Below are positions 3,992-63,272 of a DNA stretch of 64,000 nucleotides, one piece after another. The notes below the pieces were generated by a model. The model was not told the origin of the DNA. It worked only from the letters and a program-made list of their open reading frames with translations, and searched no databases. How positions within the stretch are numbered: the stretch's first letter is position 1; each line of letters opens with the position of its first letter. The stretch covers positions 32,001 to 96,000 of IMG/VR virus record IMGVR_UViG_3300033148_006964. The stretch is one strand, 5' to 3'. Source of the stretch: a virus. Both the position numbers and the translations under genes were made by a program.

Positions 3992-5164
3992 ATGAATATT
4001 ATAACTTATAATGTAAAAATTCAGGGGAAATATGAAGATTCTCTTATTAAGACATTAAGTCTTCAAAGAGATTTAGTTAATTTTTGCTCTAAGCTTCATT
4101 TTGGTGCTAAAAAAAATTCTATTGTTGACCTTCATAATAAAGCATATAAAAATGCCAGATTAAAATACCCAGATGCTTTTAGCCAACTTGTAATTCGAGC
4201 TGAACAGGAAACATTAGGATCTTATCGCACGGCAAAATCAAATAAACATAACCTTAAACAACCTATTAATAAGCATAACTTATCATGTAGACTTGATAAA
4301 AGGGCTTATTCCAAGTTTACAAAACAGTCAATAAGAATATCAACTATCGATGGTAGAAAAGAGTTTGATCTTAAATTATATCCAAAAATAGACAATTTAT
4401 TTGATAGATATACTACAGCTGATCCTCTTGTGTTTTGTAAAAATGATAAGTTATGGTTGTCCGTTAGTTTTAACATACCAGAACAGGTCATTGCAGAAAA
4501 TAAACTTGCCGTTGGTGTAGATCTTGGGAAGCGTAATTTAGCTGTAACATCTGATGGTAAATTAATCTCTGGAAGAGAATTTAATAAACACAAGCGTAGA
4601 ATTCGTTATAATAAAAGAATGTTGCAAAGCGTAGGTTCTAAATCTTCAAAACATAAACTCAGAAAAATAAGAAGAAAAGAATATAATTTTTCAAAGAATT
4701 ATACGCATCATGTTGCTAATGAAATATTAGATACAGGTGCTAATATTATTGTATTAGAAGATTTAACAAAAATCAAAAAGAAAAAAAATAAATATCAAAA
4801 TAAAAATAACATTTCTCAAGTTCCGTTTTATTTGCTTCGTTCTATATTGGAATATAAGGCACCTCTTTTAAATAAGAAGGTAACGGTTATAAATCCAAAG
4901 AATACAAGTAAAAATGATTATAGGGGTATTAAGCCTGGTATAAGAAAAGGTGGAGAATATAAAACCAGTGATGGTTTAATTTTTCACGCAGATCTTAATG
5001 CCGCAAATAATATAGCCTTAAAATCAAAACACCCTTCTCTACTTGTTGATCCAATTAATTCGTTTAGAAGGCAGGGTGCGGTCAAACACCCAATAGTAGA
5101 CTCTCAAATTAGCATTGCTAATGGAGAGGTCTACAAGCCCACGGCTTTAGCTGTTGGCGTTTGA
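3992..5164 (+). CDS. tnpB: TnpB RNA-guided endonuclease (IS200/IS605 family)
   Basis: RuvC-I GVDLG (D177), RuvC-II IVLEDL (E256) and RuvC-III HADLNAA (D334) are all intact. The Cys ligands of the usual Zn finger are absent. Confidence 0.92.
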   Translation: MNIITYNVKIQGKYEDSLIKTLSLQRDLVNFCSKLHFGAKKNSIVDLHNKAYKNARLKYPDAFSQLVIRAEQETLGSYRTAKSNKHNLKQPINKHNLSCRLDKRAYSKFTKQSIRISTIDGRKEFDLKLYPKIDNLFDRYTTADPLVFCKNDKLWLSVSFNIPEQVIAENKLAVGVDLGKRNLAVTSDGKLISGREFNKHKRRIRYNKRMLQSVGSKSSKHKLRKIRRKEYNFSKNYTHHVANEILDTGANIIVLEDLTKIKKKKNKYQNKNNISQVPFYLLRSILEYKAPLLNKKVTVINPKNTSKNDYRGIKPGIRKGGEYKTSDGLIFHADLNAANNIALKSKHPSLLVDPINSFRRQGAVKHPIVDSQISIANGEVYKPTALAVGV

Positions 5165-57989: not shown

Positions 57990-58015
57990 AAGAGGGAATT
58001 ATTAATTCCCTCTTA
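57990..58015. terminator. Terminator closing the ubiquitin-like operon
   Basis: AAGAGGGAATTA/TAATTCCCTCTT hairpin just downstream of the Ubl stop codon. Confidence 0.75.
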
Positions 58016-58032
58016 AATATAGCAATTAAAGA

Positions 58033-58509
58033 TTAAAGATTGCCCTTTGTTTTTTCTGAAAAAATCAACCTCATATTTCCATCATCATCTGGTCGTGTTA
58101 ATTCGGTTGAACCAGGAATACTCCCGCCACCTGTCGCAAGGCGATATTCATAAATTGGATCACCATTTTCTTTAAAAAATTCACTTCTTTGTTCGGAAGG
58201 AAGTTGATCAAGAAGTTGATTTATTGTGATGCCGTCTTCAACTGGAAGAGTAACATTAGCACCATTTCCAAATCTTATAATTGTAACATCCCATGGAACA
58301 TTACCTTTAGTCGGTTCTGCGATAAAAACACGCATTCCATCAGTAAGAATTTTATCAAGAGAAGCTGGAGATTGTCCTACAGTTACACATCCTTCAACAA
58401 ACTTTTCTTCAGCACGTTCTAAAAGATGTTTTATAGTAGCATCTTCATTAGTTTCAAAAGAAAACTCTCTATTAGCAGTACCCATTTTAATTAAAGTTAC
58501 ATCTAGCAT
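58033..58509 (-). CDS. Tandem di-ubiquitin-like (beta-grasp) protein
   Basis: Two homologous units: LDVTLIKMG..ATIKHLL..MRVFIAEPTKGN and WDVTIIRFG..ITINQLL..MRLIFSEKTKGNL. Adjacent to E1 and JAB genes. Confidence 0.75.
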   Translation of the reverse strand: MLDVTLIKMGTANREFSFETNEDATIKHLLERAEEKFVEGCVTVGQSPASLDKILTDGMRVFIAEPTKGNVPWDVTIIRFGNGANVTLPVEDGITINQLLDQLPSEQRSEFFKENGDPIYEYRLATGGGSIPGSTELTRPDDDGNMRLIFSEKTKGNL

Positions 58510-58540
58510 TTTAATATCCTTCTAAAATATTGTATAGAAT

Positions 58541-59311
58541 TTAAGATGTACACGTCTCCCGCATTGCCATTACGGGCTCTTCATTAAATTTTTTTAAATA
58601 AAAAGATTCTGGATACAATGAAAATTGAACTTCATTCCATAAATGAAGTCCTATTTCATCATCGTTTCGTAGATTATCATTACCATAATGACAATTAAAA
58701 TGTTGTATAATTCTACCTGCTGCAATGCTTGCAATAAACATTACTGTAGTAATTATAGATTCACTTGCTCCACATAACGATGTTTCTGCTTCCTCATCTG
58801 TATATAAAGTTTGCATCCATTGTTCTACTTCGTCTCGTGAATGAGGATTAAATGCGTAAATCCGACCATTTCGCAACCCCATTCTGGTTTCAATTACAAG
58901 ATCCGTATTAAACGAACGCTTTATACATTTTTCAAATATTTCTTTTCTACTGGACATAGTATCTGTTAATAGCATCACATAATTTGATTTTACTGATTCT
59001 TGATCAGTAACCATCTCATTATGAGCTTCAATTTTAAATCCACATTTTCTTAAAATAATTTCTTTAAGAGCTTCGACTTTTGGCATGCCGACATGTGATT
59101 GCTCATATATTTGATTTGCTAAATTATGTTCAGCTACTATATCTCCATCGAATACTTTTAAAACACCCTGTTTTAATGGAGTGTTCCCCCATCCAAACTG
59201 AGCCAGCATTGAAGCGATATAACTTCCAGTAGCACCAACCCCAACCAGTGAAATTGTTTTTTTCCCAATATCAGTTGGATTAAGCAATTTTTGTTGTCTA
59301 GTGTAATCCAA
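58541..59311 (-). CDS. ThiF/E1-like adenylyltransferase (start revised to TTG 59311)
   Basis: DYTRQ, GVGATGS, VFDGDIVAEHNLANQ, KVEAL, TDTMSSRK and a candidate thiol in ETSLCG. AGGAG RBS 8 nt before the TTG, right after the JAB stop. Confidence 0.9.
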   Translation of the reverse strand: MDYTRQQKLLNPTDIGKKTISLVGVGATGSYIASMLAQFGWGNTPLKQGVLKVFDGDIVAEHNLANQIYEQSHVGMPKVEALKEIILRKCGFKIEAHNEMVTDQESVKSNYVMLLTDTMSSRKEIFEKCIKRSFNTDLVIETRMGLRNGRIYAFNPHSRDEVEQWMQTLYTDEEAETSLCGASESIITTVMFIASIAAGRIIQHFNCHYGNDNLRNDDEIGLHLWNEVQFSLYPESFYLKKFNEEPVMAMRETCTS

Positions 59312-59312
59312 T

Positions 59313-60161
59313 TTAAAATCTCCTGTTATTGATATCGTGAACCATTTCATCTAATTCATAATCTTCTAACATTATCTTATTAAGCTTTTCATTTCTTATT
59401 TTAAACAAGTCTTCTTGATAATTTAAAAGATTATTTTTATATTTCCCATTTTTTTTACTATATGACTTATAATTTGTAAAATCTTCTTCGGGGAGATTTA
59501 TTTTTTTAAGTTCTTTAACTTTTTTCTTAATATTATTAGTTTTAATAACTTTTTCAATCTTTTGTATTTTTTTAGCTGTATCAATATTATCGGTAGATAG
59601 TATTAACGCAACATCTTTAAGCTTTGTTTCTTCAGAGTTTTGTAATAGTCCGTCTTCTTCAACCGTCCATTTTACGTTATCAAACTTAATTTGTTGATTA
59701 TAATCAAAAAACGATACAGACATTATTTCTTTTTTATTACATATACCTCTTAAAAAATAAGTTTTTCTTCGATTCATTTTTTCAATTGCTTCGTCTTCAT
59801 CTTGTTGAGACGGACTGACCCCCATAGTATGGTGAGAATGCCCCCAGAATCTAACTTTTCCAATATCATCTTCTCTATTACGATTAATTAACCAAACCCC
59901 CATATCAGATTCACCTTCAGTGGATATTTCACATGTACCACCATTAGCTTCTGAATGTTTAGGATAAAAAATCTCTCTTATAAAATATGTATCATTACCA
60001 CGTTCATCTACGATTCCAAAAAAACCAACTTCATCTGAATGAACGTCAACTAATGCTTCTATCCATTTGATAGCAGAGCTTGCAAAAATTATCTTTGGCG
60101 CTTCTTTTTTTTCTGGCTTTAAAATTGTATAGGTTGTAGCTTCATTTTTTTCGAATTTCAA
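59313..60161 (-). CDS. JAB/JAMM metallopeptidase (deubiquitinase-like)
   Basis: E44 plus H108-S-H110-x7-S118-x2-D121 is an exact JAMM motif. Confidence 0.9.
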   Translation of the reverse strand: MKFEKNEATTYTILKPEKKEAPKIIFASSAIKWIEALVDVHSDEVGFFGIVDERGNDTYFIREIFYPKHSEANGGTCEISTEGESDMGVWLINRNREDDIGKVRFWGHSHHTMGVSPSQQDEDEAIEKMNRRKTYFLRGICNKKEIMSVSFFDYNQQIKFDNVKWTVEEDGLLQNSEETKLKDVALILSTDNIDTAKKIQKIEKVIKTNNIKKKVKELKKINLPEEDFTNYKSYSKKNGKYKNNLLNYQEDLFKIRNEKLNKIMLEDYELDEMVHDINNRRF

Positions 60162-61261
60162 TCTTCACCCCCTACAATTGGCCAATTTTTTGCATTTCTA
60201 CCCCACTCATCTCCTAAATTTGGAGTTGTTACAAACCTGGTAAGTATATCCGTTAACATAAATAAATCTACATTAACAAAAGATTCAAATACACATTCCC
60301 AAGCAGATCCATAACAAGGAGTACCGCTTAAACAAACATGCGGACATTGAAATCCACCATCTGAATTATTAACTAAATATTCTCTTGTAAGATTTCTAAT
60401 TATAATAGGATTAGATGTATTAGCTTCTCCAAATAAAGTTTTTAATAAAACCCTAAACTCAATACGACCAATAAGTCTATTATTACCATCTATAGCATTT
60501 ACAGTCTGAAGATCTTTTGTTCTTATAATAAGATATCTTTTAGTAAATAATACATCATCAATTTTATTAGAATCATCTTCTATAAGCTCCTTAGCTTGTT
60601 CGATAATTTTTTTAATAAAAGGATGGTTTTCAATTGGAGTTCGAAGAACATCTATTTTATTTTTTAATTCTATTAAAATAGACATTTTTTTACTAAATAC
60701 ATTAACCTGTTCTTTTAATACCTTAGCTCTACTTGCAAGATCAGAGTTCATGCCTTCTGCTATGACTTCGGGTGCGTCATTTATATTTACAGTATTAAGA
60801 TTTTCATTAAACTTTTCAATCTTAGACCCTGAATCCTGGACATCTCTAAAGCTAAAATCATCTTCATCATAAGAATCATCTTCCACAGGCATTGCAGCAA
60901 GTATTGGTGGCTCTTGATCCGGTGGAATATCTTCTGGCGGTGCTTCGAGCGGTCCATCTGTAATTACCTGTTCTTCTAACGTCTCCGCTTGTGCTTCTGG
61001 TGCCGGACATTCATTAAGCTCTTGAACAATAGGTTCATGCAATTTACACGTAATTATATCTCCTGATATATCGTTTGTAATATGACACCCTCGTATTGTT
61101 GCGTCTTCAGTTATTAATTCAACTACCCTATCAGAGGATTGGTCTGCAACTTCTAATTCAAAAATACCATCTGATTCGTGAGATTTTAATATATAATCAA
61201 AAATCTCTTCATCAATATAATTAAGAGAGAAGTTTACAGCCGCATCTATTCTAATTTTCAT
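60158..61261 (-). CDS. E2/UBC-like protein 1 (coiled-coil plus C-terminal E2-like domain)
   Basis: CPHVCLSGTPC316 has the same spacing as the UBC signature HPNIxxxGxIC. C-terminal N..D.WG...WP tail. Confidence 0.65.
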   Translation of the reverse strand: MKIRIDAAVNFSLNYIDEEIFDYILKSHESDGIFELEVADQSSDRVVELITEDATIRGCHITNDISGDIITCKLHEPIVQELNECPAPEAQAETLEEQVITDGPLEAPPEDIPPDQEPPILAAMPVEDDSYDEDDFSFRDVQDSGSKIEKFNENLNTVNINDAPEVIAEGMNSDLASRAKVLKEQVNVFSKKMSILIELKNKIDVLRTPIENHPFIKKIIEQAKELIEDDSNKIDDVLFTKRYLIIRTKDLQTVNAIDGNNRLIGRIEFRVLLKTLFGEANTSNPIIIRNLTREYLVNNSDGGFQCPHVCLSGTPCYGSAWECVFESFVNVDLFMLTDILTRFVTTPNLGDEWGRNAKNWPIVGGED

Positions 61262-61281
61262 AAAAATTTTTTCCTTCCAAT

Positions 61282-63180
61282 TTAAGAATGAAGCGGAATC
61301 GCATCCGCTAAAATATTATCAAATTTTTTTTCTGCCTCAGATATTTTATTGAGGATCTTATTAATATCTTTATTTCTATCAGCATTGTTCGCTACTTCTT
61401 CACTTACTTCAGGCCACCTATCTATATAAGCTCCTGCAGCATCATCAGTGTTAGCTGTTTGCAAAAAAAGCATCAATTGAAAAATTATTTCATACAGATC
61501 TCTTCGTATGTAAGAATCGGCCATACTTTTTACTAAATTACCAAGACACATATGTCCATCTGAAAAAATATGTGGTGCTTGCATTTCTGTTTCAAGAGCC
61601 TCTATTTGATGTTTAGTGTTATAAATACGAATAGTGTTATTTTCATCATACCTTTCATCTAACATTCCAATTTTTATATGAAAAGTACCAATATCATGCC
61701 AACAGTTAGATCTATTATCTTGAGCATATAAATTATGAGTATATACATTAATTTTTCCATCTTTTATATTAATAGAACTTACTTCGTCAAGAGCTATGGT
61801 TTCGTTATAGTTATATAAAGCTTTTTCTTTTTCTTTTTTTTTCATATCAACTTCATCGAATGCGTCAATTTGATTCATATACTTCATCATCATCTTACCG
61901 CTTTCCATAGCTTTATTAAAATGCATTTCATAATCTTGTTTAGATTTTTCTTTTAATGTAGTAATCTCTTTCAAGATGCTTATGGCATTTTTAACTGAAA
62001 AATTTACATATTCCTCCTTATTCATTTGAGCTATATTATTATAATAGCCTAAATCAATCTTAAAAAGATCTTCATATTTAATATCATTATTAATTCTTCT
62101 TACAAATTCTTTAAATATTAACGATGAAGACTCATTTTCTCCAAAATAAACCATAGGATATAAAAATGTAATAAAGCATCTATCCTTAAGTGCCCATATA
62201 ACATTTGTAATAAAATCTTTAAAAATAAAATCAAATTTAGCATACGGTGAATTGGATTCATTTTTTAATATTTCTTCTATATCATTATATTTTTCAGTCT
62301 CTCTAAGCTCTTGAATTTCAGAATTTATTTCAGAAGAATGTAATACATGTAAATTTTTAATTGTATGACCAAAACATAATGCTTTACACCCAGGAGGCAC
62401 TTCTTTAAATTTAGAATTATCATACGGAACAAGAGATATTATTAACGTATGCTTTTCTATTTCTTTTAAATTAAATTCATTACTATCAAACAATGTTTTA
62501 AAATTATAAACTCCATTTGTAAGGAAAATAATATTTTTATTAGTTTTTTTTACTAAATTTACTACTTCCTTTTCTTGCGGGACATCACCAGTGCCGTATA
62601 TTATTACTTTACGATTTATTTTTTTTATTTCATCGTTACGTATAATAACCTGTGGACTTGCAAAATTTTCTGTAAACTTTACAAAAAATAAATCTATTTC
62701 TTTTTTTAATGGGTCTTCAAAAGTTGGTTGTTCTTCTTCATTTAATACCGCAGGAGTTGTATTAATTATATCACCTATTATATCCTCTTCTGAATCTTTA
62801 TGTTCATCATCAACAAAAAGATTTAATACAAAATCTTTAAAATCTGAAAGATCAAATCTGTTCGTTCCAATACCAAGATCTTTAATATTACGATATTGAT
62901 CGGTATTCTTTGTAGCTTCAGATGTTAATGCGTCTAATACATCGTCATCGGCATAATATTTATGTAACAATATCATCATTCCATTAATATTTGAAGCATA
63001 GTGCGTTGGACTAAGCACAGATAGATCATCTGACGCTACAAAATAATTAAGGATAATATCACTTATTTCATTAAAATCTTTTTCATTAATAGCAGCGGCT
63101 TCTCCACCATTATTCAATGCATATGGAATAAAATCAATATCAAGGAATTCTGCTAACCATTTTTCTATAAATCCATACAT
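61282..63180 (-). CDS. E2/UBC-like protein 2 (large N-terminal region, coiled coil, C-terminal E2-like domain)
   Basis: APHIFSDGHMC545LG matches the UBC signature spacing. The tail ANTDDAAG...RWP parallels that of the neighbouring E2-like gene. Confidence 0.7.
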   Translation of the reverse strand: MYGFIEKWLAEFLDIDFIPYALNNGGEAAAINEKDFNEISDIILNYFVASDDLSVLSPTHYASNINGMMILLHKYYADDDVLDALTSEATKNTDQYRNIKDLGIGTNRFDLSDFKDFVLNLFVDDEHKDSEEDIIGDIINTTPAVLNEEEQPTFEDPLKKEIDLFFVKFTENFASPQVIIRNDEIKKINRKVIIYGTGDVPQEKEVVNLVKKTNKNIIFLTNGVYNFKTLFDSNEFNLKEIEKHTLIISLVPYDNSKFKEVPPGCKALCFGHTIKNLHVLHSSEINSEIQELRETEKYNDIEEILKNESNSPYAKFDFIFKDFITNVIWALKDRCFITFLYPMVYFGENESSSLIFKEFVRRINNDIKYEDLFKIDLGYYNNIAQMNKEEYVNFSVKNAISILKEITTLKEKSKQDYEMHFNKAMESGKMMMKYMNQIDAFDEVDMKKKEKEKALYNYNETIALDEVSSINIKDGKINVYTHNLYAQDNRSNCWHDIGTFHIKIGMLDERYDENNTIRIYNTKHQIEALETEMQAPHIFSDGHMCLGNLVKSMADSYIRRDLYEIIFQLMLFLQTANTDDAAGAYIDRWPEVSEEVANNADRNKDINKILNKISEAEKKFDNILADAIPLHS

Positions 63181-63236
63181 AATAATGCACTCCTATTTAA
63201 ATAAAGGTTTAAAATTTTATGATAAATATTTCTATC

Positions 63237-63250
63237 ATTGTAGTTATTAC
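63237..63250 (-). promoter_or_regulatory. Conserved promoter-like motif, copy d (GTAATAAC-TACAAT)
   Basis: 57 nt upstream of the first gene of the ubiquitin-like operon. Confidence 0.65.
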
Positions 63251-63272
63251 AGAAAAATGATTTGAATAACTA

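Follow-up and report, generated by a model that had tools for sequence, protein, structure and literature searches.

In this study, we analyzed a 64,000-nucleotide (nt) stretch of viral DNA (the window; bases 32001–96000 of the IMG/VR record IMGVR_UViG_3300033148_006964) and found that an operon of five minus-strand genes, named here A to E, probably encodes a self-contained, phage-owned pathway of ubiquitin-like conjugation and deconjugation, in which tagging would proceed from E1 to E2 independently of an E3. Genes A (61282–63180; 632 amino acids (aa)) and B (60158–61261; 367 aa) code for proteins with a predicted C-terminal E2-like domain, gene C (59313–60161; 282 aa) for a JAMM/JAB metallopeptidase, gene D (58541–59350; 269 aa) for a ThiF/E1 protein, and gene E (58033–58509; 158 aa) for a tandem beta-grasp tag. 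According to profile matches and sequence alignments, none of the four classes (E1, E2, JAB, and tag) is missing, and the catalytic residues are intact. The complete virus record is 180,926 bp long (CheckV 100%), and the tail sheath and baseplate genes carried by it back its phage origin.

Until now, prokaryotic ubiquitin-like tagging has been understood as a weapon of the host against phages (type II CBASS, Bil and, probably, Bub). What our data support as new is that the whole enzymatic cycle is virus-owned and fixed within a clade of large phages. No complete phage-encoded set of E1, E2, JAB, and ubiquitin-like protein (Ubl) was found described in the searchable literature, reviews of jumbo phages included (the usual "jumbo" line is 200 kb, and the 181-kb record falls below it).

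Two E2 enzymes had been postulated in an earlier examination made from the DNA letters alone (the sequence-only reading), and this assignment was supported by a UBC/RWD-fold model of A, by His and Cys residues invariant in both A and B, and by the mutual paralogy of the two proteins. AlphaFold2 models were built for protein A and, from 47 sequences, for the tag E. In the model of A (predicted local distance difference test score (pLDDT) of 73), an alpha/beta domain (residues 1–126) is followed by a disordered acidic linker, a second alpha/beta region (approximately residues 156–365), a long helix (369–439), and the E2-like domain (residues 446–596; 61393–61845, minus strand), which consists of a helix, a beta-meander, the Cys loop, and then helices. 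In the Foldseek search of PDB with protein A, the best 48 matches listed were all E2 enzymes (E-values of 0.02–0.13, probability up to 0.99), and VIA-align superimposed the A domain on almost whole E2 cores (Z of 7–7.8, root-mean-square deviation of about 4 Å, about 120 of 150 residues). Moreover, an unbiased structure search of 48,161 chains ranked UbcH10, E2S, and the E2-like RWD domain of Knl1 at the top, and UBC enzymes were the best structural class for the E2-like domain in three structure searches.

The candidate catalytic residue of A is C545, accompanied by H537 (motif APHIFSDGHMC), and its counterpart in B is C316, accompanied by H308 (CPHVCLSGTPC), within an E2-like domain covering residues ~225–364 (60170–60589, minus strand). 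The His and the Cys were invariant in 19 A-type and 10 B-type sequences, as were P536, G542, and G547 in the A-type and G318 in the B-type proteins. The PHxxxxGxxC motif proposed by the sequence-only reading was therefore retained in its His and Cys but not in its Pro, which is a Gly in most B orthologues, and the real motif reads [PG]H-x4-5-G-x2-C-x-G. According to the model of A and the alignments, the His and the Cys are 8 residues apart, in the loop after the last strand; the corresponding distance in UbcH5 is 10 residues. Proteins A and B are similar to each other in this part (BLASTP E = 3e-8, 26% identity over 104 aa), and both fit a joint family alignment. Taken together, the fold (in the model of A), the conserved His/Cys pair in the expected loop, the paralogy, and the gene context support an E2-like nature of the C-terminal domain in both proteins.

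The E2-like domain is always C-terminal and stands behind variable N-terminal regions. In B, these comprise a small N-terminal domain, an acidic/Pro-rich linker, and a helical region, and the large N-terminal regions of A and B are dissimilar to each other. When the 365 N-terminal residues of A were compared with the ESM Atlas, no feature match of use was obtained and the structural neighbours did not exceed a TM of 0.33, and a wide structure search gave one weak match of residues 156–365, to a carbohydrate deacetylase (Z = 6.5). No match for protein A was found in Pfam, PHROG, NCBIfam, or PADLOC, and no meaningful match among PDB sequences was obtained when A, B, C, and E were used as phmmer queries.

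Protein C is built of a JAMM/JAB core (residues ~1–170) and a Lys-rich C-terminal extension. The exact JAMM motif noticed earlier was confirmed (E44…H108-x-H110-x7-S118-x2-D121) and turned out to be invariant in 13 sequences. Four of these 13 family members match Pfam Prok-JAB at E ≤ 0.1 (the best at 0.0012), the nearest named ESM Atlas cluster of C is a "JAB domain-containing protein" (score 0.95), and the family profile found no match among PDB sequences. The assignment of C to the JAB enzymes is hence based on the invariant catalytic motif and weak profile matches. The C-terminal extension (59313–59650 of the window, about 110 aa) is of low complexity and contains a conserved K-V-x-x-L-K-x-x-N-x-P sequence, and several C orthologues end in an acidic/aromatic E-E-F.

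In the case of protein D, the ThiF/E1 fold claimed by the sequence-only reading was borne out by a match to PF00899 above the cut-off (E = 2.8e-20, 72.9 bits vs. 28.1). Within the 13 sequences compared, G37xG39xxG42, D68, K91, D130, R135, and C193 are invariant, and C193, which lies within an SxCG motif, is the candidate catalytic Cys. The protein is a minimal, single-domain E1, with one adenylation domain in 269 aa. The D family profile matched UBA6/UBA1, MccB, ThiF, UBA5, MoeB, and Cap2 in PDB about equally, and only over the nucleotide-binding half; D is below the cut-off of every NCBIfam equivalog, the ThiF equivalogs being its best matches there.

The tandem beta-grasp architecture, which had been proposed for the 158-aa protein E, was confirmed by the AlphaFold2 model, in which two units are seen (pLDDT 83.8). 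A Foldseek search of PDB gave 75 matches with E-values of 0.001 or lower, the best of which (E ~2e-6) were ISG15, linear di-ubiquitin, and FAT10, and ThiS was the only Pfam family matched by the tag relatives (15 of 47). Unit 1 (residues 1–69; 58303–58509, minus strand) ends with T-K-G69 followed by N70, and unit 2 (residues 70–156; 58042–58302, minus strand) ends with T-K-G156 followed by N157-L158 and the stop codon. The internal K68-G69-N70 is present in 46 of the 47 family members, and so is the terminal K-G-N; 32 of the 47 proteins end exactly at the Asn, and 14 carry from 1 to 21 variable residues beyond it. Distant single-unit tags end with R-G-N, one distant phage (locus L014) has K-G-A at both sites, and in one Saccharibacteria protein a K-G-N unit is located at the N-terminus of a longer protein. 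From these sequences we infer a masked reactive Gly at the end of each unit, i.e., a precursor of the polyubiquitin style, which would be cut by the JAB enzyme after Gly. As 14 of the 47 tags carry variable extensions after K-G-N, trimming must occur in at least some members of the family.

Several observations weigh against the conjugation pathway presented above. At the sequence level, none of the 29 E2-like domain sequences matched any E2/RWD Pfam family (E ≤ 1), and the E2-like family profile recovered no E2 from PDB sequences at E ≤ 10, while the Z values of 7–7.8 obtained for the A domain are graded as middling by the tool's own notes. The Pfam Prok-JAB model matched C itself below its cut-off (E = 0.068, 13.5 bits, cut-off 25). 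At residues 76–80, protein D has H-N-L-A-N-Q vs. N-L-N-R-Q (NLxRQ) in related E1/ThiF proteins (compared in the 9egc alignment), and the replacing Asn is invariant in 13 of 13 sequences; the Arg of this motif is conserved in ThiF, MoeB, and E1 enzymes. Finally, the invariant Asn that follows the Gly of each tag unit is odd for a disposable cap and is not explained by a simple cap.

This last point leads to an alternative concerning the tag itself, which we regard as rather unlikely: the mature tag may end with Gly-Asn, with the E1 acting on the C-terminal Asn, so that the Asn would be a part of the chemistry. An analogy is provided by MccB of the E1 superfamily, which adenylates the C-terminal Asn of MccA via a succinimide intermediate (PMC4010828). 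This alternative is favoured by the score of MccB against the D profile, as good as those of other E1 relatives, by the 32 tags (of 47) that end at the Asn, and by the occurrence of this residue at both sites in 46 of 47 proteins as well as in the distant single-domain relatives. It is disfavoured by K-G-A at both sites in one distant phage, by the 14 tags that extend past the Asn, and by the fact that JAB enzymes cut after Gly. If true, it would mean that a ubiquitin-like tag is attached or activated via a new kind of C-terminus.

Some of the same features might also be read as signs of a system without any protein conjugation, in which the E1 and the beta-grasp protein would form a sulfur carrier (a thiocarboxylate of the ThiS/MoaD/TtuB type) or serve to modify the tag C-terminus, the role of JAB would be confined to tag processing, and the E2-like proteins would act as scaffolds without catalysis. 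The ThiF equivalogs as the best NCBIfam matches of D (although far below the cut-offs), ThiS as the only Pfam family matched by tag relatives, the equal score of MccB and other E1 relatives, and the existence of cultured Flavobacterium phages with just a JAB and ThiF pair, annotated as thiamine biosynthesis, all fit such an explanation. Nevertheless, we consider it distinctly unlikely, as the operon has no rhodanese, cysteine desulfurase, ThiG, MoaE, or TtuA-type partner, and D lacks a rhodanese domain and, by reading of its sequence, the CxxC zinc site of sulfur-transfer E1s. Furthermore, the His and Cys of both UBC-fold paralogues are invariant in distant relatives, and they were lost, jointly, in only one extra paralogue.

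In the conjugation pathway that we favour, the JAB protein C would trim the 158-aa precursor after Gly156, and probably also after Gly69, yielding one or two tags that end with Lys-Gly. For the pre-processing of a masked C-terminal Gly by a JAB enzyme there is a precedent in BilC (10.1101/2023.09.26.559546). The Gly of the tag would then be adenylated by the minimal E1, which probably forms a homodimer as ThiF, MoeB, and UBA5 do. The tag may be kept on this enzyme through a thioester with Cys193, and it would next be handed to Cys545 of A or Cys316 of B. The two E2-like proteins would themselves select different targets, on which Lys isopeptide bonds would be formed, and JAB would finally reverse the mark. 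Direct choice of targets by A and B is expected because their N-terminal regions are large and dissimilar, and because no E3 gene was found; in agreement with the sequence-only reading, neither an E3 nor a substrate gene is evident in the operon. Target selection by an E2 without an E3 has also been proposed for Bil (PMC11601596).

Among the known systems, the operon is closest in function to Bil (BilABCD, bacterial ISG15-like, types I and II), with which it shares separate genes for Ubl, E2, JAB, and E1, the lack of an E3, the two beta-grasp units (as in Bil type I), and a JAB exposing the Gly of the tag, the last being predicted for the operon studied here. In contrast to the host-owned Bil, the operon is phage-owned, it has two E2-like genes with long N-terminal regions, belonging to a family for which known E2s gave no sequence match, each of the two tag units terminates in the invariant K-G-N, and no match to defence models was found. 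Moreover, the Bil E1 has an IAD-AAD-CYS architecture (PMC11601596), whereas D is a 269-aa protein with a single adenylation domain.

The Bub/6E systems (types I and II) likewise combine a Ubl of 1–3 beta-grasp domains with an E1, an E2, and a peptidase. They are distinguished by Ubl-E2 and JAB-E1 fusions or an E2-E1 fusion, by the DUF6527 serine protease BubE, and by oxyesters, whereas in our operon the genes are separate and the Cys residues are conserved; no Pfam match to DUF6527 was found in the operon or its two flanking genes. With type II CBASS (Cap2/Cap3), the predicted pathway would share adenylation by an E1, a relay through a Cys of the E2 type, and antagonism by a JAB enzyme. However, Cap2 is an E2-E1 fusion acting on the adjacent CD-NTase, whereas the operon contains no such fusion and its tag is a dedicated beta-grasp protein; a Pfam scan revealed no CD-NTase-like gene in it, and the PADLOC E1-E2 models aligned to D only in their E1 part (model positions ~300–460). 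The architecture of the operon sets it apart from Bil, Bub, and CBASS Cap2/Cap3, and it belongs to none of them.

Some likeness may also be seen to eukaryotic systems. UFM1 is served by a minimal homodimeric E1 (UBA5, acting with UFC1) without a separate Cys domain, and its short C-terminal cap is cut by a dedicated protease, while polyubiquitin genes consist of head-to-tail units with a single extra capping residue. Protein D likewise has no separate Cys domain, and tag E consists of head-to-tail units with a short cap, for which internal processing is predicted. There is, however, no sequence relation beyond the superfamily level, and the cap in our case is an invariant Asn.

Among cultured viruses, Flavobacterium phage FpV4 and its relatives carry a JAB-like gene (E = 2e-5) immediately next to a ThiF gene (E = 1e-29), beside replication genes. 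The identity of the E1 is only 28%, and profile searches found neither an E2-like domain nor a tag nearby. This pair (KT876724.1, 63878–65810), of which the ThiF gene is annotated as thiamine biosynthesis and the JAB-like gene as a hypothetical protein, may represent a ubiquitin-like module of a reduced or another kind, and its annotation is probably wrong.

The next group of results concerns the spread of the operon. Patterns made from single sequences retrieved no locus from the viral contigs; the loci were recovered by an alignment-based scan. The A-B-C-D-E order, with a VRR-NUC gene upstream, was identified in 10 IMG/VR contigs (15–208 kb) and in two phage-like contigs of metagenome-assembled genomes (MAGs), and the proteins of these 12 loci have diverged to 30–60% identity. 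B orthologues were present at the same position in 10 phage loci. Eighteen homologues of protein A were found, several of them on contigs of 112–186 kb and the remaining ones known from short contigs only (sizes refer to the longest contig per cluster). Full-length copies also occurred in MAG bins of conflicting taxa (Chitinophagales, Ectothiorhodospiraceae, and Thermoplasmatales), and these contigs look like mis-binned phage contigs. The gene order is the same in 12 related large-phage contigs, and the operon is viral and fixed in a phage clade. Neither a nucleotide search with the operon nor tblastn with protein A gave any match among GenBank phages.

Two further explanations assume an active pathway. 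According to the first, the operon could be a phage-carried defence module, which would tag structural proteins of competitor phages in a Bil-like manner and thus cause superinfection exclusion. The characterised prokaryotic E1/E2/JAB/Ubl operons do act in anti-phage immunity (PMC11601596), and the cellular relatives are sporadic, like defence genes: the E2-like domain was found in 3 of 301 sampled genomes of the phylum to which a Saccharibacteria MAG carrying a related cassette belongs. On the other hand, the operon is fixed and syntenic within the replication block in 12 of 12 related contigs although their proteins have diverged to 30–45% identity, which is unlike a mobile accessory gene, and none of the proteins A, B, C, and E is matched by a PADLOC model; we therefore consider this explanation unlikely. 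The second, suggested already by the sequence-only reading, assumes that the main job of the pathway is counter-defence, in which JAB would be the principal effector and the tag would act as a decoy, so that host marks of the Bil or CBASS type would be stripped or out-competed. As the host Bil modifies phage tail proteins, a phage deconjugase would be useful. Yet the strict retention of the E1 and of two catalytically intact E2-like genes would be left unexplained, and there is no detectable sequence similarity to the Bil or Cap3 models of PADLOC, which makes such a role of the operon very improbable.

Outside this clade, variant cassettes (1–3 E2-like genes with JAB and E1) were found both in phages of greater distance and in a number of MAGs assigned to Patescibacteria or Obscuribacter. 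The MAG contigs with compact cassettes come from Saccharibacteria, Paceibacterota, other Patescibacteria, and Obscuribacter; the small tag was found in three of five, and in two MAG contigs the cassette is surrounded by genes of housekeeping function (malic enzyme, endonuclease V, PilM, and LepA). A small Ubl ending with [KR]G[NA] was found in loci L013, L014, and L018–L020, and none was identified in the variant loci L012, L021, and L022. At the protein level, the E2-like profile matched 4,185 cluster representatives at E ≤ 1e-3 (532 at E ≤ 1e-30) among 1.84 billion metagenomic proteins.

Some of these relatives differ in their architecture. Several metagenomic proteins of 420–680 aa (P0062–P0070) contain two tandem E2-like domains per chain. 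In a Patescibacteria MAG (L022:2423–8738), three tandem E2-like paralogues (664, 653, and 656 aa) stand ahead of JAB and E1, and the middle one, in which His is replaced by Asn and Cys by Tyr, is reminiscent of an inactive partner of the UEV type. The cassette of an Obscuribacter MAG (two E2-like genes, JAB, and E1) is directly followed by a gene for a 757-aa protein (L021:11208–13481), which by eye, from the Walker motifs in its translation, looks like a ClpA/ClpB-type AAA+ unfoldase; such a neighbour could link tagging to unfolding or proteolysis. In the divergent phage contigs, IS605/TnpB-type transposase genes are located inside or beside the cassette (L014:6184–7284 and L013:12389–14000), and the insertion in L014 splits the group of E2-like, E1, and tag genes from that of the second E2-like gene and JAB. 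No reverse transcriptase was found beside the cassette in the divergent phage loci L012–L014, where genes for ribonucleotide reductase, a sigma factor, TnpB/IS605, and a resolvase are present instead.

Some of the parts described here have no database name, i.e., the E2-like family (about 4,200 cluster representatives, no Pfam model), the minimal E1, and the polyubiquitin-style Gly-Asn tag. If the pathway is active, covalent tagging would give phages a means of reprogramming or disarming the host, or of managing the phage's own proteins, in the way that ubiquitin is used by eukaryotic viruses. An active pathway would moreover supply a compact, E3-free conjugation system for study or tool-building and a large uncharted branch of E2 evolution, and it raises a testable question about the role of the invariant Gly-Asn terminus.

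As regards the layout of the operon, a check of the ORFs confirmed the presence of five co-oriented, tightly spaced genes on the minus strand (58033–63180), as had been read from the sequence. The gaps A-B, B-C, C-D, and D-E are +20, −4, −38, and +31 nt, respectively. Upstream of gene A, there is a promoter-like −35/−10 pair (63237–63266, minus strand; TTCAAA, 18 nt, TACAAT), recognized by its match to the consensus only, with a GGAG ribosome site between this pair and the ATG of gene A. The promoter proposed by the sequence-only reading is thus represented by an existing pair of boxes, and it remains unproven, because such matches are no more frequent in the region than expected by chance (39 found vs. 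36.7 expected in shuffled sequence). In contrast, the hairpin of the terminator postulated after gene E proved to be real: this intrinsic-terminator-like structure (57990–58014, minus strand), with an 11-bp stem, a 3-nt loop, and a following UUUU, folds with −13.5 kcal/mol (z = −4.0), and none of 200 shuffled sequences folds as well.

The minus-strand replication/recombination block that ends with the operon, and that converges on the structural genes, has upstream of the operon, on the same strand, the genes for a primase-helicase, an exonuclease/PD-(D/E)XK nuclease, an SNF2 helicase, and VRR-NUC. Since the operon closes the block, its expression would be expected before or during DNA replication, and such early or middle expression gives a weak hint in favour of host or phage non-structural targets over virion decoration; the sequence-only reading had considered host and virion proteins as possible targets. 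In the phage genome, the E2-like domain occurs exactly twice and the tag gene once. An ORF of 390 aa (3992–5164), located in the structural part of the window, matches the phage transposase family phrog_506 (E = 1e-33).

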